A stretch of DNA of 64,000 bases from Parcubacteria group bacterium. GTDB taxonomy: Bacteria; Patescibacteriota; Minisyncoccia; Phycocordibacterales; UBA2135. The position numbers and the translations under genes were made by a program. Positions 20,144 through 64,000 of the stretch are shown here, piece after piece. The stretch covers positions 21,515-85,514 of the forward strand of contig JACQLQ010000001.1 in NCBI GenBank assembly GCA_016204045.1. The letters run 5' to 3'. Below the pieces are notes generated by a model, which was not told where the DNA came from, ran no database searches, and saw only the letters and a list, made by a program, of their open reading frames with translations. Positions within the stretch are counted from its first letter, which is position 1. Each line of letters begins with the position of its first letter.

Positions 20144-20695
20144 ATGGACTTTTCCTCACTCTTTAACCAAGCGATGGCGCTTTCTACCATGGGAGCGCAC
20201 GTTGGTATTGTGGCGATCGTACTCGCGGCAACACTCTTCCGCGAACAGTCGCGACCACTCCTCTCGTGGCTCGGCAAACACGCCTTGTGGCTTATTCTCT
20301 TTGTCACACTAGGCAGCGTTGTCGGGAGTCTCATCTACTCCGAAGTCGTTGGGTACCCGGCCTGCTCTCTGTGTTGGTGGGGAAGAATCTTCCTCTACCC
20401 ACAACTGGTCATTGTCGGGGTGGCGCTCTGGAAGAAGCGTCACGACGTGGACGTGTACCTCTGGCCGCTCACTGTGCTCGGCGCCATCGTGGCCCTCTAC
20501 AATGTGTACATTCAGTATGGCGGCAAGGAGTTCTTCGCTTGTGCAAGCACTGAGGTCTCGTGCGCCCAGCGTTTTGTCTTCGAATTTGGCTACATTACTA
20601 TTCCCATGATGGCGCTCACTTCTTTCGCCCTCATCGCTCTATTGTTGTGGCTTCAGAAGGATGGGGGGGAATCAGAACACAACGCACATCACTAA
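20144..20695 (+). CDS. Disulfide bond formation protein DsbB/BdbC-like
   Basis: Four TM helices, the GYPACSLCWWGR motif and a second Cys pair (CASTEVSC). It is translationally coupled to the thioredoxin-like gene. Confidence 0.65.
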   Translation: MDFSSLFNQAMALSTMGAHVGIVAIVLAATLFREQSRPLLSWLGKHALWLILFVTLGSVVGSLIYSEVVGYPACSLCWWGRIFLYPQLVIVGVALWKKRHDVDVYLWPLTVLGAIVALYNVYIQYGGKEFFACASTEVSCAQRFVFEFGYITIPMMALTSFALIALLLWLQKDGGESEHNAHH

Positions 20696-29861: not shown

Positions 29862-29933
29862 CCGCCCATAGCTCAACGGTAGAGCAGCTGCCTTTTAAGC
29901 AGTTGGTTGTAGGTTCGATTCCTACTGGGCGGA
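29862..29933 (+). tRNA. tRNA-Lys(TTT): tRNA-Lys (anticodon TTT)
   Basis: Manual fold: TAGCTCAACGGTAGAGC D arm, anticodon loop CTTTTAA, T arm GTAGGTTCGATTCCTAC, acceptor CCGCCCA/TGGGCGG. CCA is not encoded. Confidence 0.7.
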
Positions 29934-31761: not shown

Positions 31762-32535
31762 ATGTTCCGAAGTGTTTACACGCTTTGCGCCGCCGTCGTT
31801 GTTGCGGCGATTGCGGCTTGCAAACCTTTCCCAAAAGCAGCAAACGAGTACCCCGCGGGGCATGTGGTTCATGAAGCAGCAAAGGGCTATCTCTCAATCA
31901 GCGGAGCTTGCGGGCTCATTAGTTGGATGGGAAGCGCTTTCGTTGTTGAAGTGAATGGTGTTTCAATGGGTTTGGGTAACGGTTTAACCGCCGCTCATAA
32001 TCTCTGGTATATGTGCGGCGACATTGGTGAAGTGATGGCGGAAACACATACGGGCGCAAAATTTAAAGTGAACGCCGTCGGCTACGAAAAGGAAACTGAC
32101 ATTGGTGTTATCTACTCCCCGTCCTATCCGGGCATGAAACCCCTTTCTTTGGGGAACTCAGACGACTTAAAGTTGGGCCAAATGTTGTATGGACTTTGCA
32201 CCACGGTATGGAATCCTTCCGTAATTCCTTATGGACCGCTCATTGCAAAGGATATCACCGATTACTACACGGATCTCGAAGTCACTCTTACGGGTCTTAT
32301 GACCTTTGACGGCGCGCGGCATCCCCAGGGGTGCTCTGGCGGCCCCGTACTTACAGAGGATGGAAAGGTTGTGGGTGTGATGAGTGGAATACCCACAATT
32401 ACAGTAACTAACTTCGAGGCGGGACGCGGAGCAGTGTCCACGTACGAGGAACAACGGGGACGAGAAATCTATTTCGTTCCCATTAACACAGCTCTCGAAG
32501 CGATGCGTCGCATTGTTGCGAAAAACGGTCACTAG
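31762..32535 (+). CDS. Trypsin-like (S1 family) serine peptidase, secreted/lipoprotein
   Basis: Signal peptide ending AAIAAC, a TAAH His motif and the GCSGGPV active-site serine motif. Start chosen at MFRSVY. Confidence 0.65.
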   Translation: MFRSVYTLCAAVVVAAIAACKPFPKAANEYPAGHVVHEAAKGYLSISGACGLISWMGSAFVVEVNGVSMGLGNGLTAAHNLWYMCGDIGEVMAETHTGAKFKVNAVGYEKETDIGVIYSPSYPGMKPLSLGNSDDLKLGQMLYGLCTTVWNPSVIPYGPLIAKDITDYYTDLEVTLTGLMTFDGARHPQGCSGGPVLTEDGKVVGVMSGIPTITVTNFEAGRGAVSTYEEQRGREIYFVPINTALEAMRRIVAKNGH

Positions 32536-32675: not shown

Positions 32676-35051
32676 TTATGTTTTAACTACCTCCATCTCC
32701 CCCCAATTTTTCCCCAAAGAAGCATCTGCGATGATGGGCACATCGTGTTTAAGGACGGCCTCCATCTCCCTCTTAATTAGAGGTATCACCTCTCCAACCA
32801 CATCGTCGTTCACTTCGTACAAGAGTTCGTCATGTACCTGGAGAAGAAGGAGCGCCCTGTCTTCCCACCCGTGTTTGCGGAGCATTGTGTCAACATTAAC
32901 AATCGCAAGCTTGATAATGTCCCCAGTGGCCGTTCCTTGGAGTGGGGCATTGACTGCCATGCGTTCAGCAGCAGCTCTAATATAGGGGATGTTTGAATTG
33001 ATACCTTCAAAATAGCGGCGTCTCCCAAAGAAGGTTTCGGTGTATCCTTGCTTTGCTGCCTTTCTTTTTATTTCTTCGAGAAAGTTGGCAATTCCGGGAA
33101 ATTCATCGAAATAGCTATTATAGAAATTTTGAGCTTCCTCGCGCGTGCCACCAAGAGCTTTCTGTAAACTGGAAATCCCCATGCCGTAGATAATGCCGAA
33201 GTTGATTGTTTTTGCTTTGCGACGCATCTCTTTTGTTACTTCTTCCTGTGGCACCTTAAAAACTCTTGAGGCAACAGCCGCGTGTACATCACGACCCTCT
33301 TTAAAAATGCGAGTGAGGTCTTCGTCTTTGGAGAGAATGGCGAGGACGCGAAGCTCAATTTGGGAATAATCGAACGCCGCGAGCGTAAACCCCTTTCGTG
33401 CAATAAACGCTCGGCGTATCTTCCCGCCGTGTTCCCCTTTTATGGGAACGTTTTGGAGATTCGGGTTTTCTGAAGCCATCCGCCCCGTTGTTGTGCCTGT
33501 CTGTATAAATGATGTATGCAGTGCGCCTTCGGCATCGACCATTCCCGGAATATTGTCGATATATGTGGAAACAAGCTTTTGAAACTCGCGAAATGCGAGA
33601 ATGTCCGCAATGATTGGGTGCACATCTTCGAGCTTTAGGAGCTCTGATTCGCGCGTCGAGCGAGCGCCGCCCTCGGTCTTTTTAAGACCCTTCGCGGTGA
33701 GGCCCATTGTGTCAAAAAGCACTTCGCCGAGTTGCCGCGGGGAATTGATGTTGAATCGCGTACCCGCGCTCTTCCAGATACGCTCGGAGAGTTTGTCGAG
33801 CTCTTTGTGATATTCTTTTGAAAGATTTTTGAGATACGACGTGTCGATTAAGACCCCGCGTTCCTCTGCTTTTTTGATAATTGGTGTGAGTGGTAGCTCT
33901 ATTTCACGATACACGCGCTCGAGGCCAAGTGACTTGATCTCTCGGAGAATCCCTTCTTTTGCCTCGACAAATGTCTTCGTGCGTGCGTGGCGCATGATAT
34001 CCTCTAGAGTTGGGTTCGTTATGTCTGAATTGACAAGCCAAAGCGCAATCGCCGTCTCAACAATCTCTCTCGGATCTGGTTTTTCTTGTGTTTCTTCTTT
34101 CTGTGTTTCTTTTTTCTCACCCAAGACACCTCGCAATCGATCCTCAAGTGTTCGAAAGTCGAGTTCTTGAAAGAGGTTAGACGCCTTTGCAATATCGAAT
34201 GTGTCTCTCCATGTTTTTTGTGGGAGAGAAAAATCAATTGGTGCGTCTTTCCTAATTGATGCAAGTGTTTTTGAAAAAAGTGCCTCCTCTTCGTTGTCTT
34301 TCAAGAGTTGCACAATACGCGGTTTAATCGCCTTCTTCTCGAACGCCTTCTCGTCCTTCTTAAGTTTTTTATAAATATCTTCAATGCCACCGAAGGCGAG
34401 GATGAGCTCTGTTGCCGTCTTTTCGCCGATACCGCGAATGCCCGGGATGTTGTCGGAGGGATCACCGCGCAATCCTTTGTAATCCGCGAGGAGTTCTGGT
34501 CCGAAGCCGAAGCGTTCGCGCACCGCCTTCTCGTCATAAAGAATCGTGTCTGAAATACCTTTTTTGAGTGTATAGACCATAACCCGTCTATCATCTACCA
34601 AACTTAAGGTGTCCATGTCACCTGATGCGATGATGATTTCGAGCGCCTCTTTCTTGAGCGCGCCCTTGGATTCTTCGACAATGGTGCCAATAACGTCATC
34701 GGCTTCAAAGCCTGCTTTTTCGTAAATGGGAATGCCGAGCGCCCCAAAGACATCTCTTGATCGAATCATTTGCGCAACTAAATCGTCCTCGGCCTTTGGC
34801 CGCTTTGCTTTGTACCCCTCAAACGCTTCATGACGAAATGTCGGCCCCGCCAAGTCATAGCACGCAATGAGGTAATCGGGCTTCAGGTCGCTAATAAGTT
34901 TGATTAACATTGCCGAAAGCCCATACAACCCACCAGTTGGCTCACCCTTTCTCGAAGTGAAGTCTGGGAGTGCGTGATACGCACGATGCAAGATTGCGTG
35001 AGCATCTAAGAGCACGAGCCGTCTTTTTGTTGTTTCCTTTGTTTGTTTCAT
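32676..35051 (-). CDS. polA: DNA polymerase I
   Basis: N-terminal 5'-3' exonuclease (LVLLDAHAILHRAYHALP) and polymerase motifs RRKAKTINFGIIYGMG and LLLQVHDELLYEV. Confidence 0.9.
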   Translation of the reverse strand: MKQTKETTKRRLVLLDAHAILHRAYHALPDFTSRKGEPTGGLYGLSAMLIKLISDLKPDYLIACYDLAGPTFRHEAFEGYKAKRPKAEDDLVAQMIRSRDVFGALGIPIYEKAGFEADDVIGTIVEESKGALKKEALEIIIASGDMDTLSLVDDRRVMVYTLKKGISDTILYDEKAVRERFGFGPELLADYKGLRGDPSDNIPGIRGIGEKTATELILAFGGIEDIYKKLKKDEKAFEKKAIKPRIVQLLKDNEEEALFSKTLASIRKDAPIDFSLPQKTWRDTFDIAKASNLFQELDFRTLEDRLRGVLGEKKETQKEETQEKPDPREIVETAIALWLVNSDITNPTLEDIMRHARTKTFVEAKEGILREIKSLGLERVYREIELPLTPIIKKAEERGVLIDTSYLKNLSKEYHKELDKLSERIWKSAGTRFNINSPRQLGEVLFDTMGLTAKGLKKTEGGARSTRESELLKLEDVHPIIADILAFREFQKLVSTYIDNIPGMVDAEGALHTSFIQTGTTTGRMASENPNLQNVPIKGEHGGKIRRAFIARKGFTLAAFDYSQIELRVLAILSKDEDLTRIFKEGRDVHAAVASRVFKVPQEEVTKEMRRKAKTINFGIIYGMGISSLQKALGGTREEAQNFYNSYFDEFPGIANFLEEIKRKAAKQGYTETFFGRRRYFEGINSNIPYIRAAAERMAVNAPLQGTATGDIIKLAIVNVDTMLRKHGWEDRALLLLQVHDELLYEVNDDVVGEVIPLIKREMEAVLKHDVPIIADASLGKNWGEMEVVKT

Positions 35052-35053
35052 GA

Positions 35054-35503
35054 CTACGGATTAACGATTCTGATTTTTCTTGTGCGTTCGTCTACTCCTT
35101 CAAAATACATCTTTATCGCATCGTACGGCAATGCGGCCTCTATCCGGTCTGCCCATTCTATGAAAATGAGGTTCTTCGGATCTTTTGAGATCTCCTCCCA
35201 CCCGAGACTCAACAATTCGTCACTGTCCCGTAAGCGATATGCATCAATATGTATAAAGCGGGCAAAGCGCGGGTGGTCCATGGCATACACGCGTTCAATG
35301 ATGAACGTTGGGGAGACCACAGGTTCCACAACACCGAGTGATTCTGCGATGCTTTTTACAAACGTGGTTTTGCCACTCCCCAAATCGCCATACAATCCTA
35401 TGACGGATGCCTCCTTGGGCGCCACACGCCCAAATACTTCTTGCGCGAGTATCGCGGCCACAGCCTTCAGGTCATCGGGGGTTTTTGCGTAGAGCTCTTG
35501 CAT
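35054..35503 (-). CDS. tsaE: tRNA threonylcarbamoyladenosine biosynthesis protein TsaE (YjeE)
   Basis: LYGDLGSGKTTFVKSIAESLGV and SPTFIIERVY motifs. Start moved to MQELYAK. Confidence 0.8.
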   Translation of the reverse strand: MQELYAKTPDDLKAVAAILAQEVFGRVAPKEASVIGLYGDLGSGKTTFVKSIAESLGVVEPVVSPTFIIERVYAMDHPRFARFIHIDAYRLRDSDELLSLGWEEISKDPKNLIFIEWADRIEAALPYDAIKMYFEGVDERTRKIRIVNP

Positions 35504-35523
35504 GCGTCTATTGTACCAAATGA

Positions 35524-35556
35524 AAGGGCGCGAGGGGGGGTAACCTCCTCGCGCCC
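35524..35556 (-). terminator. GC-rich hairpin terminator downstream of the lipoprotein gene
   Basis: gggcgcgagg...cctcctcgcgccc is a 10-13 bp GC stem, followed on the minus strand by a short T tract. Confidence 0.4.
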
Positions 35557-35576
35557 GTTTTGTTGTGGTCGACGTG

Positions 35577-36056
35577 CTACTGCACGCGCCACTGACCGTC
35601 TGGCTGCCGACAGGCGGTGCCAAAGGCGTTCTGCGTCTGGCCACCAACGGTGACCGTCTGCTGGTACTCGCGGCAGTAGACGCCTGAACGTGGCTCTGTC
35701 GTGTTGGTGGGCGTCACCGTGCCGTAGTGGCCAGTGTCCGGGTTCCGCCACGTCGTCGTGGTGTTGCGCGGGGTATCGTTCAGCGCACGCTCTGTCGTTT
35801 GGTGCATCAGACGACGGTCTGTCGCATCCACGGACCGGCCGAGTTCGCCACCAATGGCGGCGCCCAGGAGGGTACCGATGCCGACTCCGACGAGCTGGCC
35901 CGTGCCACGCCCGAATTGCGCACCAGCGAGACCGCCAGCGATAGCGCCCAGGACTGTGCCGGCCTGCTGATTTTCGCCACCAGCGCAGCCGATGGGGCCA
36001 CCAAACGCCAGGGAAACTCCCAGCACTGCAACCAAAAGCACTTTATTTGACTTCAT
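35577..36056 (-). CDS. Glycine-zipper (17-kDa surface antigen/SlyB-like) lipoprotein with Cys-containing C-terminal domain; GC-anomalous
   Basis: Lipobox LAFGGPIGC, Gly-zipper GAIAGGLAGAQFGRGTGQLVGVGIGTLLGAAIGG, and C-terminal YCREYQQTVTVGG...GTACRQPDGQWRV. Local GC is about 65% against about 48% background. Confidence 0.6.
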   Translation of the reverse strand: MKSNKVLLVAVLGVSLAFGGPIGCAGGENQQAGTVLGAIAGGLAGAQFGRGTGQLVGVGIGTLLGAAIGGELGRSVDATDRRLMHQTTERALNDTPRNTTTTWRNPDTGHYGTVTPTNTTEPRSGVYCREYQQTVTVGGQTQNAFGTACRQPDGQWRVQ

Positions 36057-36375
36057 TTTACCCGTTCCTTCCTATAAGCTGGATTGCCAAGTCAATTATA
36101 TCATAATCGGCTAAAAAGTCAATAAAAATGAGGTTATGTAGCGCAGAACATAACAACTACCTCACACCAAAATCACGTACTCGCAGATGGTACTTTCGTT
36201 AGTAAGAATGAGCACTGGGGCTAACAAAACAATTGGGTTGTGTTTACTGTCGTGATGGTGCACAGTGATTCTCTGCACAGAACCACTGTTTCAACAAAGT
36301 GCAATATTGTTTTACGTAGAAGCACGCGCTAGTATTAAAAGCAAGAGACGCTCCTCCTTTGCCCTCTTCATTTTC

Positions 36376-38055
36376 ATGGTCACGTTTGACGAAGACAAGC
36401 AAAAAAAGAAAGTAGCTGAACTGCAAACGCAGGAAGCTGAAGAACTTGCTCGATTTATAGCAGAAAGGCATGATCTTCCTTATATAGACCTTTTAACTGT
36501 TCCCCTTTCAAGTGACGCTTTGCGCCTTCTAAAGGAAGAAGAGGCGCGTACGGGGCTTCTCGCTCCGTTTCGTTTGGTTGGAAAACAGGTTCATGTTGCC
36601 ATTGCGGCGCCCAACAACCAAGACACAATAGACCGAATAAAAGAGCTAGAAAATGCGGGGTATTCTCCGATCCTCTATGTTGCATCCAAAAAGAGTCTTG
36701 GGCGCGTATGGGAACGATATGCGGAGCTTTCTTTAAGCTTAGAGACGGAGGAGGGCGTTCTTGAGGTCTCCTCAGAACAAGTTCTGTCTTACTTGGCAGA
36801 ATTTAAGAGCTTAAACAGTGTCGCAGAGGTTATTGCTGGCGTACTTGCGGGGAAGGAACGATATCAGACCACAAGAATCCTTGAAATTTTGATTGCTGGG
36901 TCCCTCGCCACCGACGCGTCAGACATTCATATTGAACCAGAAGAGACGCAGGTGATGCTCCGCTATCGTTTGGATGGTGTTCTTCAGGAGGTTGCTGCCA
37001 TAGAGGAGCGGGTGTTCACACTCCTTGTTTCACGTATTAAAATTCTCTCCGGCATGAAGTTGAACGTGCGTGATGATGCGCAAAACGGCCGGTTCACCAT
37101 CAAGGTGCATGATGCGGACATCGAAGTTCGAATCTCGACAGTGCCCGGAGCATATGGAGAGTCTGTGGTGCTTCGTATCCTAAACCCCAAGGCGATAGCG
37201 GTTCCATTTGATAAGTTGGGTATGGAAAAGAGACTTGAGGAAATTGTGAGACGGGAGATAAAAAAGCCCAATGGCTTGATCCTAAACACGGGTCCTACTG
37301 GTTCTGGAAAGACGACAACGCTTTACGCGATCCTACGTCTGTTGAACGACCCGACAGTCAAAATTATTACCATTGAGGACCCGGTTGAATATCATCTTCC
37401 CGGGATAACACAGACGCAGGTTGATAGTAATACCGCGTATAACTTTTTTGAGGGGCTCCGTTCGGGGCTCCGCCAAGACCCAGACGTCATCATGGTCGGA
37501 GAAATCCGCGACAAAGAAACTGCGGAGACTGCGATTGATGCCGCGCTCACGGGTCACTTGGTGCTTTCGACCCTTCACACAAACAACGCGGCGGGAACCA
37601 TACCTCGGCTCATCGACCTTGGAGTAAATCCAAAAATCATCGGCTCTGCGCTAACGCTTGCTCTTGCCCAACGACTCCTACGAAAACTCTGTGAATACTG
37701 TAAGAAGGAAGACACACCAACGGAAGAAGAGCGAAAGATCATCGCTCATATGGAGCCGCGGTTGCGCACCGCATTCGCCGACATACAAACCACACGAGTA
37801 TGGCGGGGAAGCAAGTGTGACAAATGCAACAACACCGGCTATAAAGGACGTATTGGTATTTTTGAGGCGGTGCACATGGATGCCGAAATTGAAAAACTCG
37901 CTTCAGAAAACCCGAGCGAGCGTGAGATAAAAAAGTTAATGGATACACAGGGATTGCTTGATATGGGAGAAGATGGTGTTTCAAAGATTCTTCATGGTGT
38001 CACTTCTTTTGAGGAGGTGATGCGTGTAATTGATTTGAGCTCTTACGCCACCTGA
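36376..38055 (+). CDS. pilB: Type IV pilus assembly ATPase PilB / GspE-family secretion ATPase
   Basis: N-terminal GSPII_E N-domain, Walker A GPTGSGKTTTLYA, the His box STLHTNNAAG and a tetracysteine motif CEYC...CDKC. Start moved to MVTFDED. Confidence 0.85.
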   Translation: MVTFDEDKQKKKVAELQTQEAEELARFIAERHDLPYIDLLTVPLSSDALRLLKEEEARTGLLAPFRLVGKQVHVAIAAPNNQDTIDRIKELENAGYSPILYVASKKSLGRVWERYAELSLSLETEEGVLEVSSEQVLSYLAEFKSLNSVAEVIAGVLAGKERYQTTRILEILIAGSLATDASDIHIEPEETQVMLRYRLDGVLQEVAAIEERVFTLLVSRIKILSGMKLNVRDDAQNGRFTIKVHDADIEVRISTVPGAYGESVVLRILNPKAIAVPFDKLGMEKRLEEIVRREIKKPNGLILNTGPTGSGKTTTLYAILRLLNDPTVKIITIEDPVEYHLPGITQTQVDSNTAYNFFEGLRSGLRQDPDVIMVGEIRDKETAETAIDAALTGHLVLSTLHTNNAAGTIPRLIDLGVNPKIIGSALTLALAQRLLRKLCEYCKKEDTPTEEERKIIAHMEPRLRTAFADIQTTRVWRGSKCDKCNNTGYKGRIGIFEAVHMDAEIEKLASENPSEREIKKLMDTQGLLDMGEDGVSKILHGVTSFEEVMRVIDLSSYAT

Positions 38056-44990: not shown

Positions 44991-46091
44991 TTATTGGTTT
45001 AAGGGCATAATCAGCGCCGTAAACGAACGGTCCCCAACCCCCTGGACCACCAATGGTTTTGATCCACCGTTACATTGCAAAGAAACACTGTCTGTTGTTA
45101 TTGATTGTAAGGAATCAACAACATACCTGTGGTTAAAATTGAGAGAGACGCCTTCTCCGGAAAAAGACGAGTCGATAAAGGCCGTATTCTCACCAACATC
45201 GGGGTTCCTTGAGGTAATAGAAAAAGTTTTCCCTTTTGGATCAACAACCAAGGTGATTTGGTTAAACTTGTCTGCAAAGAGGGTTGTTGTTTTTAGTGCG
45301 TTCACAAAATCCTGTTTCAACACAATAACCTCTGTTGTGTGCTCTTTGGGGATGATTTGTTTGTAGTCTGGGAAAACGCCCTGGATAAGCCTTGAGGTGA
45401 GGTAAATTCCTCCGCTCTTGAATGATATTTGGTTGTCGTCAAAAGATATTTTAATGTCTTCTTTTGTTGCATCAAAAACGCGGATAATCTCTGCGACATT
45501 TCTAATAGGAACAAGGAGTGTTTCTCCATCAACCTCTGTTTCGTAGTCAATAATTTTTTCAGCGAGTCGGAAGGAGTCGGTAGCTGTAAATGTAATTGTT
45601 TTGTTGTTAATACCGAGGAAAACACTGGCTATCTCGGGTTTAATATCGGAAACTGATGCACTGTACCAAACTGATCTTAGTCCGTTTACGAGTTTTTCTG
45701 GTTTAATCTGGATTGTCTTTTTATTCGATGAAACAACAGGGAGTGTTGGGAAATCCTCGTTCGGGAAACTTTTAATAACGGCTTTGTTTTTTTGTGATTG
45801 AACAAAGAGATTACCATCCTTAACTTCAAGAGATATTGTTTCGTCGGTTATGTTTGATAAGAGATTGTTTAGTATGTTTCCAGGAACAGCAACTATTCCT
45901 TTTTTGTGTACCTTAACAGGTAGTGTGATCTCTATTCCAATATCAAGGTTGGTTGCTCTAATAGTGATTGATTTATCATCAACAACAAGCAGGACTGTTC
46001 CAAGGATAGGTAGGGTGAGGTTTTTCCCAGTCATCTTCTCTGCAAAAGAGAGTGCGGTTTTTAATTTGTCCTTTCTGCTTTCTATTTGCAT
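44991..46091 (-). CDS. dnaN: DNA polymerase III beta sliding clamp
   Basis: MQIESRKDKLKTALSFAEKMTGKNLTLPILGTVLL start, 366 aa, three-domain length. Confidence 0.9.
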   Translation of the reverse strand: MQIESRKDKLKTALSFAEKMTGKNLTLPILGTVLLVVDDKSITIRATNLDIGIEITLPVKVHKKGIVAVPGNILNNLLSNITDETISLEVKDGNLFVQSQKNKAVIKSFPNEDFPTLPVVSSNKKTIQIKPEKLVNGLRSVWYSASVSDIKPEIASVFLGINNKTITFTATDSFRLAEKIIDYETEVDGETLLVPIRNVAEIIRVFDATKEDIKISFDDNQISFKSGGIYLTSRLIQGVFPDYKQIIPKEHTTEVIVLKQDFVNALKTTTLFADKFNQITLVVDPKGKTFSITSRNPDVGENTAFIDSSFSGEGVSLNFNHRYVVDSLQSITTDSVSLQCNGGSKPLVVQGVGDRSFTALIMPLNQ

Positions 46092-46343
46092 ATATAATTA
46101 AAGATAGTGAACTAATGATTATTGTTATTATTGGTATGTGGAAACAGTGGAAATCTATTTTACCCTTTAATATCAAAGCAAAACACAGCACCCAAAAAGA
46201 ACTACTTGTTTATTGCATGTGTATAACATGTTGTTAAAAACACTAGCATACAACCCACACGTCACCAACTCAAGAAATATACCAATCTTTTCAACAACCA
46301 ATCCCTACGTTATACCCAAACTTTCAACAACTAATCCACACAA
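46092..46343. other. oriC: Probable oriC: AT-rich DUE plus DnaA-box-like 9-mers in the dnaA-dnaN intergenic region
   Basis: AT-rich tract atatataattaaagatagtgaactaatgattattgttattatt. Box-like 9-mers TGTGGAAAC, TGTGTATAA, TAATCCACA and TTATACCCA against the consensus TTATCCACA/TGTGGATAA. Confidence 0.6.
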
Positions 46344-47717
46344 CTAAAACATTGATCGGATCTGCTCAAGGTCTTGAGAAAGCACCACATCCATCGCAAT
46401 ATCCCTCTTAACCTTTTCACATGAATGGATAACTGTTGTGTGATCTCTTCCCCCCAACTTTTGTCCTATTGTCGGAAAAGAGATACCAAAGTCCTCGCGA
46501 AGCAAGAACATGATGATTTGTCGAGGGCGGACAACCTCCTTTCTCCTTGTTTTTTCATATATCACCCCTTTTTCTATGTTATAAAATCCGGAAACAATAC
46601 CAACAACATCATCAACAGACAATGATTTTCGAGGTTTTTCACTATTTTTTATAAGCGACTTAACCTCGTTTATTGTGAGATTGCGCTTTTTGAGCTGTGC
46701 TTGGCACACAATAACATTCAAAACACCCTCAAGCTCACGTATGCTTCCTCGCGCTGTGTTTGCGACGTGATCGATAATCTCGGGAGAAGGGCAAAAATCA
46801 ATATTCTTTGATTTTGATTGTAAAATCGCCACCTTTGACTCAAAGTTGGGGTCTTGAATATCAATAATCATACCCGCCCCAAAGCGTGAACGGAGGCGGT
46901 CCTCCAGAGTGCCAATATAGTTCGGGTGCTTATCGGAAGAAAAGATAATCTGTTTGTTTTTGTCGTAAAGCTCATTAAAGAGGTGGAAGAGCTCGTCTTG
47001 GGTGCTTTGTTTGCCGGTCAAAAACTGGACATCGTCCATAATTAAAACATCATATTTTCTATATTTTTCTTTAAAGGTTCCAACCTTGTTTGCCCCAACG
47101 GCGTTCACAAAATCAAGATAAAAACGTTCCGCCGTTACATAAAAGACCCTTTTGTCTTTTGCTGTCTCCTTTATTTTATTCCCCGTCGCTTGTAGAAGGT
47201 GTGTTTTGCCAAGACCAGTTCCTCCATAGACGAATAACGGATTATACGAGTGCCCAGGAGACTCTATAATCGAACGGGCGGCGGCATAAGCAACCTCGTT
47301 GAAGGGTCCCACGACGAACGAATCGAATGTGTACCGCGGGTTTAAGTTATCTTCCTTGTTAACGTAAAGATCCTTAAGAGGAAGCTCGTTTGTGTATGAC
47401 GGGACCCCACGCTCCTTTTCCTGTTTTTCGGTGTATTTTTCTCCTCGAGGGACAATAACGTAGTCAACACCCCGTACGTACGGAGAAACATTGCGCAGAG
47501 ACTTCAAAATAAACTTGTGATATTTCCCCTGAAGCCACTCTTTCACAAAACCATTAGGCACAGAGATATGTATTACCCCCTCCTCCTCCTTTAAAACACA
47601 AGTATTTTTAAACCACGTAGTAAAATTTGCCTTCGAAACGCTAAGTTCTATCTCAGTGAGGGCGCGTTCCCAGAGTTGCTCGATGTCGGTTGCTGTTTTT
47701 GTCTCTGATTCTTGCAT
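46344..47717 (-). CDS. dnaA: Chromosomal replication initiator DnaA
   Basis: AAA+ Walker A GGTGLGKTHLLQA and a C-terminal DNA-binding domain. Start moved to MQESETK. Confidence 0.9.
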   Translation of the reverse strand: MQESETKTATDIEQLWERALTEIELSVSKANFTTWFKNTCVLKEEEGVIHISVPNGFVKEWLQGKYHKFILKSLRNVSPYVRGVDYVIVPRGEKYTEKQEKERGVPSYTNELPLKDLYVNKEDNLNPRYTFDSFVVGPFNEVAYAAARSIIESPGHSYNPLFVYGGTGLGKTHLLQATGNKIKETAKDKRVFYVTAERFYLDFVNAVGANKVGTFKEKYRKYDVLIMDDVQFLTGKQSTQDELFHLFNELYDKNKQIIFSSDKHPNYIGTLEDRLRSRFGAGMIIDIQDPNFESKVAILQSKSKNIDFCPSPEIIDHVANTARGSIRELEGVLNVIVCQAQLKKRNLTINEVKSLIKNSEKPRKSLSVDDVVGIVSGFYNIEKGVIYEKTRRKEVVRPRQIIMFLLREDFGISFPTIGQKLGGRDHTTVIHSCEKVKRDIAMDVVLSQDLEQIRSMF

Positions 47718-47789
47718 GAGGAGAAAGTTACAAGTGAATGAAGTGAAAGGCAGACACCAATAATCTCTATAGTATATCGGTAAACCAAA

Positions 47790-47850
47790 CACGAGAGAAC
47801 TTGCGAAAAGAGCCTCAATATGTTGATAAGCTGTTCATAAGGTGTGTATA
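47790..47850. promoter_or_regulatory. DnaA-box-like cluster upstream of dnaA (autoregulatory / second origin module)
   Basis: TGTTGATAA (8/9), TGTTCATAA and TGTGTATAG lie within the rpmH-dnaA divergent intergenic region. Confidence 0.35.
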
Positions 47851-51486: not shown

Positions 51487-52272
51487 TCATCCACCAAAAC
51501 AAGAATACCGAAGTATTTCACAAACCGTGCCCTCTCGAGGAAAAACACATCTTGCCGTCCACGTCCCACTGTTCGTTGTGCACCTGGTGCGATAATTCTC
51601 AATTTCCGCAGTGTCCTCAACGGCAAAATCTTCAGACTCCGGTCTTCCAGAGGGAGCCGGTCTCTCTGGTTCACGTAACATACAACAAAACGAGGAAGAA
51701 TCCGGCTTCCCGAGAGAACCACCAGAACAGAATCGATCAGCGATGGGTGCTTGTCTTACGCCGCGGACGTCTAGACACAAGCGATCCTCGCTCGAATTAA
51801 CATTTGTCACCCAGGTGTAAGAATATCCCGGCGGCGCACTTGGTGGGGTGGCAGGACTGATGCCCTCTAGGCGCAAATCAATATTTAAGAGGTTGGGGTT
51901 TATGGTTTGGAGAATAAGCACTGACGATAGGATAAGGATGAAACCCCATATGGCATTTTGCATTCTCTTCATCCCCTCTTCTTTTCCGCTGATTATCTCA
52001 CTTGCCATGTACTGTATACCCCCAACGACAATAAGAAGGACCGCCAATACAGTTGCTGCGCCGACAGCAAGACTAAAAAACCCCTCAATATAACGTCCCA
52101 CGGGTGTCTCCGCCTGTGGGGTACCACCCAAAGGCGGAAGTTGCTCAAGGGGCACGTACCCCCCGGGGGTTCCTTGGGCAAAGGCGATTCCGAAAATACC
52201 AAAAATACCGACAAGTAAAAGAATGGCAAGAAGACCAAAGAGAGGCAACCTTTTTAAGTATGAGCGGTGCAT
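51487..52272 (-). CDS. VirB2/TrbC-like pilin family protein with Cys-rich C-terminal extension
   Basis: Signal peptide, then two hydrophobic helices (FFSLAVGAATVLAVLLIVVGGIQYMAS; AIWGFILILSSVLILQ) in a TrbC/VirB2-like arrangement, then about 130 aa containing at least 8 Cys. Confidence 0.45.
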   Translation of the reverse strand: MHRSYLKRLPLFGLLAILLLVGIFGIFGIAFAQGTPGGYVPLEQLPPLGGTPQAETPVGRYIEGFFSLAVGAATVLAVLLIVVGGIQYMASEIISGKEEGMKRMQNAIWGFILILSSVLILQTINPNLLNIDLRLEGISPATPPSAPPGYSYTWVTNVNSSEDRLCLDVRGVRQAPIADRFCSGGSLGKPDSSSFCCMLREPERPAPSGRPESEDFAVEDTAEIENYRTRCTTNSGTWTARCVFPREGTVCEILRYSCFGG

Positions 52273-52284
52273 ATGTGTACAAAA

Positions 52285-53286
52285 CTAAATTTTCTCCTCA
52301 CTACCAAAGTTTACCAAAAATTCGGCTGTTGTGGCCTGGAGTGCGCGCGCCGCATTTTCAACAACCAAAGAGATCTGCGCCACGCTTGCGGATTGCTGAG
52401 ATCCTTCCTGGCGCAGGGTAATCTCGCCGGATCTTTCTCCACCAGGTACCATACGTCCATTTAACGACCAAACAAAAGAAATTTTGCCCAAGCGCACGTC
52501 GTTCAAAGAAAAATACAGTGGTTCAGCACGCAGTGTCGTTTCCTCTGTCTCCAGATCAATGACTCCTGGTAAGGCCTTATTATACAGGACCCCCAACAGT
52601 GGGTGCCGTTCATACAGAAGAACGCGTGAGTCATGGGGAACAAGACGCATTTCTTTTTTAACAGAAAAAGAATTTTGAAGGGAGGAAACCTCAACCATGA
52701 CGTCAACGGGTCGGAATCCCGATGGCATTGTCAGCTCAACCACGTCCCTTCCGTACCCAGAGAGATTTCCAAGCACAGTACGGTCCTTAGACCACGTGAA
52801 CACTAGCTCACTTGAAGCGAGGCGTGTGCCGTTCCCAAGTACGAAGTGTGGGACCGCAGTGACTCTGACCGTGCTTCCTGGCGACGCCAGAGCCTTGCCT
52901 CGATAAAACGGTGGAGTATACGTGTCTGCCTCCCAAAGGAAGTCGACCTCTGCTGGTCGGATGACTGTCTCGCCACGCAACTGTTTGCCGTCGATGGTTC
53001 GCACAAGAGCCGTGATGGTTGTTGCACTTCCCAAGGGACCCGCCGAAAAGCGAAATGTTTTTACCCCTCGCCCGCTTGAAACAACGCGCCCACTTTGTGT
53101 CCATGAAATAGTGGAGCGATTAAGGTCGGCCGCGGAGGAAGAAAGTGAAAGAGTGACCTCCTGTCCAGGTCCGGGCGTTGTTGGTGAAACAGCAACCTGG
53201 AGAACCGGAGCAATAGTCTGTGCACTCGTCCACAGAGGGAAGAGTAAAGATAGCGAGATGAAGAGTGTTGTTACAAGCTTAGACAT
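52285..53286 (-). CDS. Hypothetical secreted protein (signal peptide, beta-rich/Ig-like)
   Basis: MSKLVTTLFISLSLLFPLWTSAQT signal peptide; Ser/Thr/Val-rich. Confidence 0.35.
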   Translation of the reverse strand: MSKLVTTLFISLSLLFPLWTSAQTIAPVLQVAVSPTTPGPGQEVTLSLSSSAADLNRSTISWTQSGRVVSSGRGVKTFRFSAGPLGSATTITALVRTIDGKQLRGETVIRPAEVDFLWEADTYTPPFYRGKALASPGSTVRVTAVPHFVLGNGTRLASSELVFTWSKDRTVLGNLSGYGRDVVELTMPSGFRPVDVMVEVSSLQNSFSVKKEMRLVPHDSRVLLYERHPLLGVLYNKALPGVIDLETEETTLRAEPLYFSLNDVRLGKISFVWSLNGRMVPGGERSGEITLRQEGSQQSASVAQISLVVENAARALQATTAEFLVNFGSEEKI

Positions 53287-53309
53287 TTTTAGAATGCAGA
53301 ATCTAGAAT

Positions 53310-55145
53310 TTAGCTTTTGGAAGCTTCCTCGATGGGTGGTTCTCCCGCCGGAGTCTCGCGCGCCCTCTTAATTGCGAGAAGCTCTGATGGGTCTGACGTG
53401 ATAATTTGGTCTTCGGCGTATGAGGCAATAGTTTTCATTGCGACGTGTTTTAACCCGGCAAAGAAAATCCCCTCACCAACGTCTGATTCGAGAAGGAGAA
53501 ACTTCTCCTCATTTGTGAGGTTAAAGGTTTTTTGCACGAGATCGATAGCAGAGGTTGATTGTTTAAGGAGAAGACGGATCGACGAGTTGTTGATAATTGC
53601 CTCACCATAAGGTGAACGAAGAAAGTCGTTTACGTCCTGTGTAATTGTTGCGAGTCCAAGGTAGTACTTTCGGCCACGCTTCGCAAGCGAGAAGAGGAAA
53701 GAGGCTGTATCTTCTTGTTTCATCATCCACCACGCCTCATCGATAACCATAAGACGTTTTTTGAGATTCTTTCGGACTGCGTTCCAAATGAAATGCGTGA
53801 CGATATACATCGCAACAGGCTTAAGCTCATCCTCCATGTCTCGGACGGAGAAAACAACGAACTTTTTGTTGATGTCCACATTTGTCGGGCGGTTGATGAA
53901 GCCGCTCCATGTCCCCTTGGTGTATTTGGTAAGGCGCTGGGAGAGTGATTCCCCGCCCTTCATTCCAGCGAGCACGAGCTCAAAGTCAGAAAGTAGTGGA
54001 GGTGCAATGTTTGAGAAGTTTGAATCAGGCGTAATATCTTTGAGCGCATAGGTTTCAGTGATCGCACGGTCGATAATAGAGTCTTCTTCCGGAGTAAGCC
54101 CACCCAACATAATACGGAAGAGTCCGACTAAGTTAACAATATTAGAGCGTAGCACGTCTGCTGGCGCCTCCCCCTCTCCCACTGGGGGTAGGTCAAAGGG
54201 ATTAATGTGGTGCTCGGAGGTCAATGAAATATTGAAGTATCGTCCACCCGTCGCTTCTGCAAGGTATTCGTACTCACGTTCCGGGTCAATGACGATAACA
54301 TCAATGTCGAACATGAGCGATCGCAAGATTTCAAGTTTTGTGGCGTATGATTTCCCAGCACCTGATGTCGCGAACATAATAGAGTTGTAGTTCGGCATCG
54401 AGAAGCGATCAAACAAGACGAGGCTTGAGTTATGACGGTTTACTCCATACAAAATACCTCGGTCGGATGTCAGATCGAAAGACACGAATGGGAAGAAAGA
54501 GGAAAGTGGCGACGAGTTAAGTTTCGAATGAACATTCAGGCGGTCATCTGCGATGGGGAGCACACTTCGATACCCCTCCTCTTGTTGGAAGAGGGCTGGG
54601 CGGATATATACCAACTTCGACTCGAGCATCGTTTTAATCTCCTGTTCGATTTTGTCCACCTCGCTCTCGGTGTCACCATAGATAGTGATATAGAGACCCA
54701 CGTCGAAAAGTCGCTCTTGTGCTTGCTGGAGCTTGTCTCGGAGCGCTTCGAGGTCTTGGTATGCAGTGTCGAGCTTTGGGTCGCGCACAAGACCCTTTTC
54801 TTCGCGGATGCTGATCTGGCTCTGCACCTCGGCAACCTTTTTTTGGAACTCACGAAGAGCCTGGCCAGTGTCAATTGGGTGCACAAAGATGGAGATATCA
54901 AAGATTTTGTCGAGATTGATGATGGGAGAAAGCCAGTTGTCTGAAAGAAAGCGTGGATAGGAAATTGCAAAAAAGGTACGCGCTATTTTCTCGCTTAAGT
55001 AGAATTGTCTCGGCTCGATCTTCAAGGCGGCGGGAGCGATAATGTCGCGCAACTCCAAGACTCCCGCTTCATAAATTTCTTGCGGAAGAATTGGTGAAAT
55101 CTCCGTTTTCTCTTCTCGTTTTAAGATTTTGTCGAGCAAACCCAT
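53310..55145 (-). CDS. VirB4/TrbE/CagE-family type IV secretion ATPase (ATPase domain)
   Basis: Walker A MFATSGAGKSYATK, Walker B LMVIDEAWWMM, 611 aa. Confidence 0.75.
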   Translation of the reverse strand: MGLLDKILKREEKTEISPILPQEIYEAGVLELRDIIAPAALKIEPRQFYLSEKIARTFFAISYPRFLSDNWLSPIINLDKIFDISIFVHPIDTGQALREFQKKVAEVQSQISIREEKGLVRDPKLDTAYQDLEALRDKLQQAQERLFDVGLYITIYGDTESEVDKIEQEIKTMLESKLVYIRPALFQQEEGYRSVLPIADDRLNVHSKLNSSPLSSFFPFVSFDLTSDRGILYGVNRHNSSLVLFDRFSMPNYNSIMFATSGAGKSYATKLEILRSLMFDIDVIVIDPEREYEYLAEATGGRYFNISLTSEHHINPFDLPPVGEGEAPADVLRSNIVNLVGLFRIMLGGLTPEEDSIIDRAITETYALKDITPDSNFSNIAPPLLSDFELVLAGMKGGESLSQRLTKYTKGTWSGFINRPTNVDINKKFVVFSVRDMEDELKPVAMYIVTHFIWNAVRKNLKKRLMVIDEAWWMMKQEDTASFLFSLAKRGRKYYLGLATITQDVNDFLRSPYGEAIINNSSIRLLLKQSTSAIDLVQKTFNLTNEEKFLLLESDVGEGIFFAGLKHVAMKTIASYAEDQIITSDPSELLAIKRARETPAGEPPIEEASKS

Positions 55146-55155
55146 GATTAATTGA

Positions 55156-55803
55156 TTATATCTTAGCCGCTTTCTCTGATGGAATTGGTTTTTCTACTTC
55201 GCCGGGGTTAAACATCTTGAAGAAAAGCTCTATAAGCTCTTCTGTCCCAAGGCGTGCGACGCGAATACCCGTTGACGCAAGTCCCTGCTCGACAACGGAA
55301 GCGCGCTGCTCAAGTTGAGTACGGTTTTCTTCGAATGACTCTAGGTGTGCCTCTTTCCCCTCTTGCCGCGTCCTCCCAGTGAAACGACTAATAAGGTCAC
55401 CACCCGCCTTGCCGAGGACCGAGGGAGAATATGGGATTACGATAAAAAAAGTTTTTGTCATGATATTGACGGTTTCCGAAAAACTTTTGATGAATTCTAT
55501 ATACTCCCCCACCTGGAGGCGCATAAGATCCGATGTTTGCTCCTTTTCCCGCTCCTGAAGGAGTGAAATGTAGGGTCTAATATCGAGTTTGCGCGACTGT
55601 ACGAAGAATTGTATCGAGAAATCGAGAGAGTTTAAGGTGTTCTGAAACTGCGAAAGGATTGCCTCTTGTTCATCTTCTGATTTGAGTGCCAGGTTGTGGG
55701 AAGAGGCCATAAGCACCAAGCGGAGAGAACCATCCTTAAGGATGATAATGCCGTTTCGGATTTCCCTAATTGGAACGAATTCTTGAGTTGATGTTGAAAC
55801 CAT
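55156..55803 (-). CDS. VirB4-family N-terminal domain encoded as a separate ORF (split VirB4 or frameshift)
   Basis: FVPIREIRNGIIILKDGSLRLVLMASSHNLALKSEDEQEAIL resembles the N-terminal domain of monoderm VirB4 homologues (TcpF/TrsE-type). It ends 10 nt before the ATPase ORF, in a different frame. Confidence 0.5.
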   Translation of the reverse strand: MVSTSTQEFVPIREIRNGIIILKDGSLRLVLMASSHNLALKSEDEQEAILSQFQNTLNSLDFSIQFFVQSRKLDIRPYISLLQEREKEQTSDLMRLQVGEYIEFIKSFSETVNIMTKTFFIVIPYSPSVLGKAGGDLISRFTGRTRQEGKEAHLESFEENRTQLEQRASVVEQGLASTGIRVARLGTEELIELFFKMFNPGEVEKPIPSEKAAKI

Positions 55804-55853
55804 AATTCGGTCAGTAGTCTTTAGTCCTTAGTCTGTAGGCTATCGACTACGAG

Positions 55854-56309
55854 CTATCGACTATTTTTTTCTTGTCCGGCGTAAATGCTGTCGTGGACGT
55901 CTAAACTCCAGGCAATATCTTTGAGCTTGCTTTCCGATAGCTTTGGCACTACGAGACCCGACTCCTGCGGCAACGCCTCCGGTCTTTCGGCAGCCTTAGG
56001 CTGCTTCTTCCATAAATACAGTTTACCACGTGTCACATACCGGAACAGCGCCTCAAGTGCGTAGACGAAGCTGCGGTCATTCACTTTGTAAAACGCGAGC
56101 GCAAGTGACAACCCCCCCACTCCCACGATGAGCGGAATGGAAAGGAAAATGGGGAGAAGCCGCCACAAGAGAAAAACCATACCCGCCCCCCCAGCAAGAT
56201 AGATGAACTGTCGAAACGTCAGCGGGCCGAAAATCCTATCTTCTATCTCAATAAATTGTGGTGTTTGGAAACGCATAATTAAGTTACCAGTCTTTAGCCT
56301 ATGGACCAC
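55854..56309 (-). CDS. PrgI/VirB3-like small membrane protein
   Basis: MRFQTPQFIEIEDRIFGPLTFRQFIYL followed by two TM helices, the typical PrgI-family N-terminus, immediately upstream of VirB4. Confidence 0.55.
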   Translation of the reverse strand: MVHRLKTGNLIMRFQTPQFIEIEDRIFGPLTFRQFIYLAGGAGMVFLLWRLLPIFLSIPLIVGVGGLSLALAFYKVNDRSFVYALEALFRYVTRGKLYLWKKQPKAAERPEALPQESGLVVPKLSESKLKDIAWSLDVHDSIYAGQEKNSR

Positions 56310-63387: not shown

Positions 63388-64000
63388 AAATCTGAAATTG
63401 TCTGCGCGAGCCTTTTCCACTCGTCGACCGAAAGATTTTCTGCTCGAGCGTTTACATTGACGGACGCCTTTTCAAAAGCATTTTTGTCGATGCCAGTGTG
63501 TGCCAAGTTACCCAAGAGTTTTTTCCGTGGATGCGCGAAGCCGGCGCGGAGAACAGTAAAAAATCTGTCTTCAGAAGTGGTGTCAAATGCACCACGGGAA
63601 ATGTTCTCTATGCTTAGGATTGCCGAGTCTACCTTTGGTGTCGGATCGAAGGAGCCTGCTCGTATTGTTTTGACATAGCGTGGTTCACCGTAGACCTTTA
63701 CCGATATTGAGAGGAGAGACTCTCGCCCACCCCCGATAATACGCCGCGCTACCTCTTTTTGGATAATGAGCGCGATCGTTTCTGGTTGTGGGTCAATCGA
63801 GAGGAAGCGTCGCAAAAAGAAACCCGTGATGTAGTAAGGAATGGAACCGACGAGCTTGTAACTCCCAGCTCCCAAGTTGTAGTTTTTTGGATCAAAAAGA
63901 AGAATATCAGCGGAAACGACCGTTAGTTTTCCATTTCCCACTTCCTCTGAGAACGTTTGCGCCAGTTCCGCAGCAAGAGCCTCGTCTTTCTCAACGGCAA
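63384..64000 (-). CDS. rsmA: 16S rRNA (adenine1518/1519-N6)-dimethyltransferase RsmA/KsgA, 3' part (gene continues beyond window end)
   Basis: C-terminal region VSADILLFDP...FDPTPKVDSAILSI... matches KsgA; the start codon lies outside the window. Confidence 0.7.
   Translation of the reverse strand, partial: AVEKDEALAAELAQTFSEEVGNGKLTVVSADILLFDPKNYNLGAGSYKLVGSIPYYITGFFLRRFLSIDPQPETIALIIQKEVARRIIGGGRESLLSISVKVYGEPRYVKTIRAGSFDPTPKVDSAILSIENISRGAFDTTSEDRFFTVLRAGFAHPRKKLLGNLAHTGIDKNAFEKASVNVNARAENLSVDEWKRLAQTISDL

Follow-up and report, generated by a model that had tools for sequence, protein, structure and literature searches.

The 64,000-nucleotide stretch of DNA from a groundwater bacterium of the Parcubacteria analysed here (GenBank assembly GCA_016204045.1, contig JACQLQ010000001.1; hereafter the window) carries, in the spacer between the divergent genes pilB and tsaE, a gene of alphaproteobacterial origin that encodes a 159-residue glycine-zipper protein. 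Taken as a whole, the explanation that we consider probable is that this gene is an alphaproteobacterial xenologue whose product is expressed and exported as a surface lipoprotein. An earlier note, made from the sequence alone, had proposed horizontal acquisition because of the anomalous G+C (GC) content of the gene. The proposal is now supported by evidence independent of GC content, namely the closest relatives of the protein, the genomic context of the donor-type copies and the empty spacers of other Parcubacteria.

The gene (35577-36056) has a GC content of 0.646 and a GC content at third codon positions (GC3) of 0.713, as against a GC content of 0.486 for the window, so that the figures of about 65% and 48% given in the earlier note are borne out; sliding 200-nt windows over the gene agree (0.63-0.69). 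Both values are the highest among window open reading frames (ORFs) of at least 150 codons. Host genes have a GC3 of 0.38-0.67, typically ~0.5, and the GC content of the host is ~0.49. The compositional step is sharp and limited to ~0.5 kb. The flanks had been put at 38-40% GC, which is correct for the upstream spacer (36057-36264, 0.40) but not for the downstream one (35504-35576), where the GC content is 0.59 because of a hairpin within it. Pfam matches of the neighbours agree with the earlier description of the gene as standing alone between tsaE and pilB, on the strand opposite to pilB.

The product matches the Pfam models PF05433 (glycine zipper 2TM; residues 33-73, 27.7 bits with a cut-off of 24.2) and PF16998 (17kDa_Anti_2; residues 79-159, 40.7 bits with a cut-off of 26.6, E = 2.4e-10), the latter over profile positions 32-111 of 116. 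Its cysteines are at positions 24, 128 and 149. In an alignment of 120 sequences, residues C128, R129, E130, A148, C149, R150, D153, G154 and W156 are invariant and present in the window protein. The family-invariant positions also include W103, N105-P106 and, with the exception of G57, the zipper glycines (10 of 11), and the window protein keeps all 27 invariant residues. AlphaFold2 models the C-terminal domain as a helix (residues 78-94) packed on a 4-5-stranded antiparallel sheet, with a predicted local distance difference test score (pLDDT) of 91-97 over residues 81-159; the zipper is left unmodelled in the monomer. Of the architecture read from the sequence earlier (lipobox, glycine zipper and Cys-pair domain), the zipper and the Cys pair (C128/C149) stand, whereas the lipobox, GPIG-C with Pro at -3, is non-canonical and differs from the canonical LAG-C of the donor-type copies. 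No model of NCBIfam release 20 reached its cut-off (YiaD, 30 bits versus 175; PRK11280, 28 versus 99; OsmB, 14.6 versus 98). The databases contain an identical protein, P0001, from a 387-kb contig of a Parcubacteria group bacterium metagenome-assembled genome (MAG), and its NCBI name refers to the zipper domain only.

A homology search with the window protein yielded 2660 matches, the named ones being overwhelmingly proteobacterial; among the best 120 of these, only two combine a Parcubacteria label with the altered signal peptide described below. The closest relatives fall into two groups, one consisting of P0003, from the Parcubacteria MAG GCA_016204005.1 (locus L003), and the other of P0002 and P0004-P0009, whose cluster members are named as Alphaproteobacteria bacterium MAG proteins. 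The mature part is 79-85% identical to these uncultured alphaproteobacterial proteins, with 82-85% for proteins on contigs of 66-69% GC, and the next tier of homologues, at ~53-55% identity, includes Thalassospira and Ferrovibrio. The homology search, recommended earlier (as BLASTP) for identifying the donor lineage, places the closest relatives outside the Parcubacteria in the Alphaproteobacteria. Their genes lie on contigs of 66-69% GC, with the gene matching its flanks in composition; in the donor-type contig L001, for instance, the GC content is 0.658 overall and 0.651 in the gene. The context of the donor-type copies is conserved, with PNPOx and cation-efflux (CDF) genes upstream and genes for Sel1, DnaJ, a short-chain dehydrogenase, AroC and DXS downstream, and the AroC of a donor-type contig is most similar to sequences of Alphaproteobacteria, Minwuia and Rhodospirillaceae. 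The DNA of the window resembles that of L001 only from about codon 22 to the stop codon. Across the family, gene GC tracks flank GC in 36 native contexts with flank GC contents of 0.35-0.75 (r = 0.94) with a mean excess of +0.027 (standard deviation, 0.034). The copies in the window (+0.162, ~4 standard deviations out) and in L003 (+0.179) are outliers from this relationship.

On the recipient side, L003 has the same gene order as the window, the lipoprotein gene lying between pilB and tsaE-polA, and the two loci are 75.0% identical in the DNA of the lipoprotein gene and 75.5% identical in tsaE-polA. They have in common the promoter, the terminator stems, the -10 element of tsaE, a 5-residue insertion in the signal peptide and the GP[IV]GC lipobox. 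This second MAG, together with an independent Logan assembly of run SRR12113384 that reproduces the window arrangement, excludes the chimeric contig that had been raised as a concern. The earlier note had also named a same-lineage homologue of similar GC content as grounds for giving up the transfer; L003 formally provides one, yet the transfer is not refuted by it. The divergent arrangement of pilB and tsaE-polA is widespread and conserved in Parcubacteria, and the spacer is empty (44-249 bp) in ten other Parcubacteria loci. No homologue of the window lipoprotein was present in loci L006-L065, and a metagenome scan for further Parcubacteria carriers gave only relatives of at most 56% identity among the matches listed. 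The PolA proteins of the window and L003 are 84% identical, with synonymous sites near saturation (synonymous divergence, dS, 1.2-2.4). The shared spacer and gene order, with synonymous sites saturated, therefore show that the transfer is old: the gene entered the pilB-tsaE spacer before the lineages of the window and L003 split.

Since then the gene has been maintained. Comparison of the window and L003 copies gave a nonsynonymous divergence (dN) of 0.134-0.176 and a dS of 1.2-1.3, and the dN/dS ratios, 0.14 for the whole gene and 0.10 for its mature part, indicate that it is under purifying selection. The signal peptide, by contrast with the donor-type copies, carries the 5-residue insertion and has GP[IV]G-C in place of LAG-C; both Parcubacteria copies have retained Cys24 within a signal peptide that has otherwise diverged. 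In both, the mature part has remained donor-like in composition (GC, 0.67-0.70; GC3, 0.735 and 0.824), with a sharp step at the Cys24 codon. The gene might be a chimera of a native signal peptide and a foreign mature domain, but the other lipoprotein genes at the pilB-tsaE position likewise begin with ~70 nt of low GC content.

The gene is equipped with expression signals of its own (Table 1). Its promoter is also kept in L003 (334-361). Downstream of the stop codon, the GC-rich hairpin pointed out previously was recovered, with 10 G-C-rich pairs, a folding energy of -31.1 kcal/mol and a z-score of -4.8 relative to shuffled sequences; UUUCAUUU directly follows the G+C-rich stem, as in an intrinsic terminator. 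Its stems, but not its loop, are conserved in L003, where the scanner calls the orthologue in the coding orientation. The description of the terminator as the gene's own needs one correction: terminator and promoter are shared by the two Parcubacteria, and beside the sampled donor-type gene in L001 neither has a counterpart. A 28-nt segment that includes the extended -10 element of the tsaE-polA unit is identical between the window and L003. The location of this element only 6 nt before the tsaE start codon suggests that the tsaE-polA mRNA may be leaderless or nearly so.

We then compared the occupants of the same spacer in other Parcubacteria. It is filled in nine other loci, in five of which (L006, L012, L013, L018 and L030; two genes in L018) the occupants encode proteins with canonical lipoboxes in the orientation of tsaE. 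These proteins have no Pfam match, and tblastn, BLASTP and Pfam found no homology between them and the window protein. In four of the five loci (L006, L013, L018 and L030), representing at least three other Parcubacteria lineages, the genes are strong GC outliers, and the L013 gene has a GC3 of 0.69 as against a mean of 0.30. Near-consensus promoters precede these genes (12 of 12 consensus matches in L013; 11 of 12 in L030 and L006), and each is followed by a long GC-rich hairpin and a T-run before tsaE. The family of the L013 and L030 proteins gave only six matches among 5.8 billion proteins, the single named one being from Zambryskibacteria; two further members that were looked up occupy the same pilB-tsaE position. 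This family evolves 3-6 times faster than PolA (35-62% versus 81-93% identity), and in the clade of L013, L030, L067 and L070 the GC3 is 0.59-0.75, versus 0.30-0.38 for PolA, despite saturated dS. The GC3 excess has survived saturated synonymous divergence, and high GC at the pilB-tsaE position is therefore a maintained property, not simply a relic of transfer. As a criterion for transfer, the GC anomaly emphasized in the earlier note is real as an outlier but weak at this position, where native, unrelated lipoprotein genes are equally anomalous. The same GC-maintaining force may explain the absence of amelioration in the window gene and its high proportion of G-to-C and C-to-G changes (31%). 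Biased gene conversion, expression-linked selection and recurrent re-acquisition are candidates for its cause.

Other sources of the GC excess were considered and set aside. Amino-acid composition was rejected, as the GC3 is also high and family members have 39-43% GC in low-GC native hosts. Translational codon selection was not supported, with GC3 values of 0.49-0.54 in the genes for ribosomal proteins L19 and S20. Neither was a selected mRNA structure: folding z-scores against 20 shuffles were +0.70 for the window gene, -1.17 for a donor-type copy and -2.27 for L030. A structured or hidden RNA gene was rejected as well; an Rfam scan of the window and six related loci gave tRNAs elsewhere only, with no match at the pilB-tsaE position.

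On these observations we tentatively put forward, as a possibility clearly less probable than not, that the pilB-tsaE spacer is a conserved 'expression slot' in which a single surface lipoprotein is strongly expressed and can be replaced by another, filled in the window lineage by a protein derived from Alphaproteobacteria, possibly from a host cell. The occupants of such a slot, in at least four lineages, would be lipobox proteins with no relation to one another, each having a near-consensus promoter and a long hairpin terminator, and a GC3 excess of 0.25-0.45 above the genome would be actively maintained in it after synonymous saturation. Biased gene conversion at a recombination hotspot, selection on expression, or uptake from high-GC partners might act there. 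If this were so, the borrowed lipoprotein could mark the host and could mediate attachment through zipper-zipper association with the copy that the host itself has.

Part of the machinery that would mature such a protein is encoded in the window. It includes a homologue of Lnt (apolipoprotein N-acyltransferase), which aligns over its full length with Pseudomonas aeruginosa Lnt (5N6M; E = 2.8e-15), including the Glu, Lys and Cys motifs. Lnt acts only on lipoproteins and is usually tied to double-membraned bacteria and Actinobacteria. A Trypsin_2 serine protease with a canonical lipobox (AAIAA-C), whose orthologue lies at the corresponding position beside polA in L003, indicates that the host itself produces lipoproteins. 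Neither Lgt nor LspA was seen in the 64-kb window; if present, they are encoded outside it. The window also encodes a DsbB homologue, the gene for which has the second-highest GC3 of the window (0.668), after the lipoprotein gene. A scan of ~65 window ORFs gave no match to the Bam, Lol, Lpt or Tol-Pal families, in agreement with the earlier impression that the protein is unexpected in an organism without outer-membrane machinery; with Lnt and DsbB encoded in the window, it is less out of place than had been supposed. Patescibacteria have been proposed to lack an outer membrane (PMC12102498).

The observations establish that the gene is foreign, where it inserted, that it arrived before the two lineages separated and that it is under purifying selection, with a remodelled signal peptide and regulatory elements; lipidation, oligomerization, topology and physiological role are inferred. 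On this basis the following course of events can be proposed. The donor would have been a high-GC, uncultured alphaproteobacterium and the recipient an ancestor shared by two Parcubacteria lineages, in which the gene entered the short spacer separating the divergent pilB and tsaE-polA; its inheritance since then would have been vertical. As a self-contained unit of promoter, Shine-Dalgarno sequence, ORF and terminator, the last insulating tsaE, it would be expressed monocistronically and at a high level. The product would be exported by the Sec pathway through a signal peptide that was lengthened and recomposed for the new host. Cys24 is probably acylated, with the host Lnt as the presumed maturation factor, and, an outer membrane being presumably absent from these bacteria, the single cell membrane would carry the anchored protein on its outer face. 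By analogy with SlyB and YfgH, the 11-glycine zipper may form a self-associating, membrane-embedded helical hairpin. A C128-C149 disulfide, for which the host DsbB is the candidate oxidant, would brace the C-terminal domain displayed outwards, which may serve in envelope stabilization or in contact with a partner cell.

Family members also occur in other settings. A third GC-anomalous copy, P0007 (L135 221-751 and L136 444-974; GC, 0.62; GC3, 0.76; flanks, 0.45 GC), was found in Logan assemblies SRR12053438 and SRR12053439 and in a 6.5-kb contig of ERZ1305449. It has the donor-type LAG-C lipobox, and its GC-rich block begins precisely at the donor-type GTG start and ends at the stop codon. The neighbouring small ORFs each have a consensus promoter, and one of them (1655-1897) is also GC-rich. 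P0007 and the contig of the donor-type P0006 come from the same ENA sample. Distant members, 35-50% identical to the window protein, are present on 29 IMG/VR contigs (L137-L165). In one of these, the family gene (L139 4989-5480) lies amid genes for head closure, an endolysin and dCMP deaminase; judging from this gene content, therefore, some phages carry a 17-kDa-antigen-family lipoprotein. A phage or plasmid as the vector of the window gene was rejected: there was no GenBank phage match, only one Azospirillum plasmid match, and none of the IMG/VR members is close.

Several observations weigh against the proposed explanation, and they bear in part on the history of the gene and in part on the fate of its product. 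In the tree, the clade P0001-P0010, which comprises the two Parcubacteria and eight alphaproteobacterial-type sequences, has 64% bootstrap support and unresolved internal branches; monophyly of the two Parcubacteria copies has 24% in this poorly resolved tree of a short protein, and only two exclusive shared residues back it. Between pilB and tsaE there are no mobile-element signatures (integrase, repeats or tRNA), the nearest tRNA being at 29862. The mature part has not shifted toward the GC content of the host although the synonymous sites of the window and L003 copies are near saturation; by our own estimate, which is not a computed value, a GC3 of ~0.55-0.6 would be expected under neutral drift. 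A rival explanation is repeated or independent acquisition, in which the Parcubacteria copies, or at least the parts for their mature domain, were separately refreshed by recombination with DNA from alphaproteobacterial neighbours or hosts, so that the gene stayed donor-like while the Parcubacteria-specific promoter, signal peptide and terminator were left in place. The identities in the mature part are star-like (window and L003, 81.6%; window and P0002 of L131, 85.3%; L003 and P0002, 82.4%), and the exclusive nucleotides common to the two Parcubacteria are no more numerous than those that they have in common with donor-type copies. Their third-position differences include G-C exchanges at the proportion seen between donor-type copies (32%), unlike polA (10%). 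The donor-like GC3, the compositional step at Cys24 and the independent anomalous copy in the 45% GC contig L135 could be read in the same way. However, the third-position identity of the two copies (0.49) is close to that of polA (0.48), as co-divergence predicts; a force specific to the position is the simpler account, since unrelated native lipoproteins there keep a high GC3 with no detectable donor; and the protein is too short for its tree topology to weigh much. We therefore regard repeated acquisition as unlikely. Far less probable still is an origin within the Parcubacteria, or a move from them into the Alphaproteobacteria, with the GC content reflecting only the regime of the position. 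The GC-rich lipoprotein genes at this position elsewhere are, as far as can be told, not foreign, but the named matches are overwhelmingly proteobacterial with Parcubacteria making up two of the best 120, the family equilibrates with its host across 35-75% GC, the donor-type copies lie in a conserved native context, and ten Parcubacteria have the site empty. Two further readings can practically be dismissed. An assembly or binning artefact, joining a proteobacterial fragment into a Parcubacteria contig, would account for the sharp GC step, but the same gene with the same neighbours is found in a second MAG with 25% divergent DNA, the independent Logan assembly agrees, and the gene has a promoter, a signal peptide and a terminator that are specific to the Parcubacteria and have diverged together with the flanks. 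A decaying, non-functional remnant of transfer is at odds with the intact ORF in both lineages (omega, 0.10-0.14), the full set of family-invariant residues and the conserved promoter and terminator.

As to the product, we know of no demonstrated function for the 17kDa_Anti_2 domain, and no solved structural relative of the C-terminal domain was found by Foldseek (best E = 0.13). A Pro residue at -3 is not known from the published lipobox patterns, the canonical form being [LVI][ASTVI][GAS]C, and it is found in both Parcubacteria copies, in contrast to the donor-type ones. The small residues at -3 and -1 in G-C-A, which is followed by G, are also compatible with cleavage by signal peptidase I. 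These features, and the absence of Lgt and LspA from the window, would fit export without lipidation, the protein being either cut after G-C-A or held by an uncleaved membrane anchor. Against this, Cys24 is kept in both copies inside a fast-changing signal peptide, the host encodes Lnt and a further protein with the canonical lipobox IAA-C, and the same-position lipoproteins of relatives have canonical lipoboxes. Export without lipidation is in our judgement a minority possibility, albeit a better one than repeated acquisition, and a single old acquisition followed by export of a probably acylated protein is the reading that we retain.

On this retained reading, the gene gives a well-bounded example of a bacterium, presumed to have no outer membrane, that has domesticated a lipoprotein of the outer-membrane type. 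Donor-type sequences, empty sites and a second carrier bound the transfer event. Adaptation to the new host involved a rebuilding of the signal peptide and of the regulatory signals, which did not extend to the mature domain. A life in attachment to other cells is presumed for these bacteria, and few of their partners are known; a surface protein borrowed from a specific alphaproteobacterial group is a testable lead to the partner organism. The results also carry a caution for method: a GC anomaly alone at the pilB-tsaE position is not diagnostic of recent transfer. While transfer into Patescibacteria is already documented in general, the recurring GC-rich lipoprotein genes at one position are the unexpected part, and the persistence of their GC3 excess through long vertical descent is not predicted by current amelioration models.

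Other features of the window are as follows. Its PolA is 52-60% identical to the PolA of MAGs labelled Campbell-, Nomura-, Vogel-, Zambryski- and Kaiserbacteria, and dnaA, dnaN, YidC, a class A penicillin-binding protein, RuvABC and type IV pilus genes are also encoded. The dnaN and dnaA genes (44991-47792), followed by YidC and a Jag-like R3H protein, lie beside the lowest-GC stretch of the window (0.39-0.42; 45-48 kb). The replication origin is probably here, at a distance of ~10 kb from the lipoprotein gene. Large unannotated ORFs flank a type IV secretion cluster (51487-56309, minus strand), which is of the type known from single-membraned bacteria and matches the type IV secretion system described for Patescibacteria (PMC12102498). 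L003 has a ~120-bp insertion (~953-1072) that the window lacks. It separates the terminator from tsaE and immediately follows the ATG used as the tsaE start in the window; with 14-nt inverted repeats at its ends (GTCCCGATAGTGAC ... GTCACTATCGGGAT), it looks like a miniature inverted-repeat element.

Table 1. Coordinates of the features of the window and of lipobox genes at the same position in other Parcubacteria loci.
Feature	Locus	Coordinates	Strand	Basis or remark
Glycine-zipper / 17-kDa-antigen-family gene, 159 aa	Window	35577-36056	-	ATG start; ORF and Pfam
Signal-peptide codons 1-23	Window	35988-36056	-	GC 0.52, GC3 0.565, host-like
Cys24 codon, presumed lipidation site	Window	35985-35987	-	Cys in at least 90% of 120 aligned sequences
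Glycine zipper, residues 33-73	Window	35838-35960	-	PF05433; 11 Gly, every fourth position
C-terminal 17kDa_Anti_2 domain, residues 79-159	Window	35580-35822	-	PF16998; AlphaFold2
Sigma-70-type promoter (TTGACT, 16 nt, TATAAT; upstream TG, extended -10)	Window	36095-36122	-	11/12 consensus matches plus TG
Shine-Dalgarno-like AGGAAGGAA	Window	36065-36073	-	8 nt 5' of ATG; direct sequence reading
Intrinsic terminator hairpin, then UUUCAUUU (coding strand)	Window	35526-35556	-	Folding; between lipoprotein transcript and tsaE
Extended -10 (TGGTACAAT) of the tsaE-polA unit	Window	35510-35518	-	6 nt before tsaE ATG; no Shine-Dalgarno site; presumed function
tsaE, downstream boundary of the insertion position	Window	35054-35503	-	PF02367, E = 1.3e-30
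polA	Window	32676-35051	-	Pfam
pilB (type IV pilus ATPase), divergent, upstream boundary	Window	36376-38055	+	PF00437, E = 3e-117, scored on 36265 start
Lnt homologue	Window	61756-63420	-	LNT_N and CN_hydrolase
DsbB homologue	Window	20144-20695	+	PF02600, E = 1.3e-8
Trypsin_2 serine protease, lipobox AAIAA-C	Window	31762-32535	+	Pfam, lipoprotein signal
Type IV secretion system pilin	Window	51487-52272	-	Type IV secretion cluster
VirB4-like TraG P-loop ATPase	Window	53310-55145	-	Type IV secretion cluster
TraC-like fragment	Window	55156-55803	-	Type IV secretion cluster
PrgI/VirB3	Window	55854-56309	-	Type IV secretion cluster
Spacer lipobox gene	L006	3958-4446		GC 0.61 vs 0.38 in other ORFs; z 6.0
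Spacer lipobox gene	L013	3346-4191		GC 0.55 vs 0.36 in other ORFs; z 7.2
Spacer lipobox gene	L030	3529-4197		GC 0.56 vs 0.38 in other ORFs; z 7.8
Spacer lipobox genes (two)	L018	2542-3105 and 3308-3694		GC 0.57 vs 0.47 in other ORFs; z 5.0
Spacer lipobox gene	L012	2782-3243		GC 0.535 vs 0.444 in other ORFs; z 2.9 (weaker outlier)
Further L013/L030-clade gene at spacer	L067	5049-5723		
Further L013/L030-clade gene at spacer	L070	217-894		

By Pfam criteria and its invariant motifs, the window protein is assigned to the 17-kDa surface antigen (RT0821/Lpp0805) family of Alphaproteobacteria (Thalassospira P0055 and Ferrovibrio P0030, for example), with which it shares the PF05433 plus PF16998 architecture and the length. 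It is 49-62% identical to the listed proteobacterial relatives (53-55% for the named genera). It differs from them in a signal peptide that is 5 residues longer, in GPIG-C instead of LAG-C, in a Parcubacterium host presumed to have no outer membrane and with a GC content 16 points below that of the gene, and in its location between pilB and tsaE instead of beside Sel1, with a consensus promoter and a terminator that belong to the gene itself. To the enterobacterial lipoproteins SlyB, YfgH, OsmB and YiaD the likeness consists of the putative N-terminal lipoprotein signal and the GxxxG zipper, which in such lipoproteins forms self-associating helices embedded in the membrane. The SlyB-like segment named in the earlier note is present as a GxxxG repeat recognized by PF05433, but the similarity to SlyB itself is weak (7OJF, E = 0.055), as it is to YiaD and OsmB. 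Only the zipper aligns with SlyB or OsmB, with no whole-protein similarity; the C-terminal domains of these proteins are unrelated to that of the window protein, and they act in the outer membrane. Glycine-zipper lipoproteins form membrane oligomers (bioRxiv 10.64898/2025.12.22.696046). A survey of transfers in Patescibacteria (Candidate Phyla Radiation) found Pseudomonadota to be occasional donors, in 3 of ~130 events (PMC12455944). The window gene and its insertion position are not described in that survey. It resembles the transfers reported there in being a single gene from a distant groundwater donor, with ~20-25% divergence from the nearest donor-like copy, and differs from them in the lack of compositional amelioration and in its location at a position recurrently filled by lipoprotein genes.

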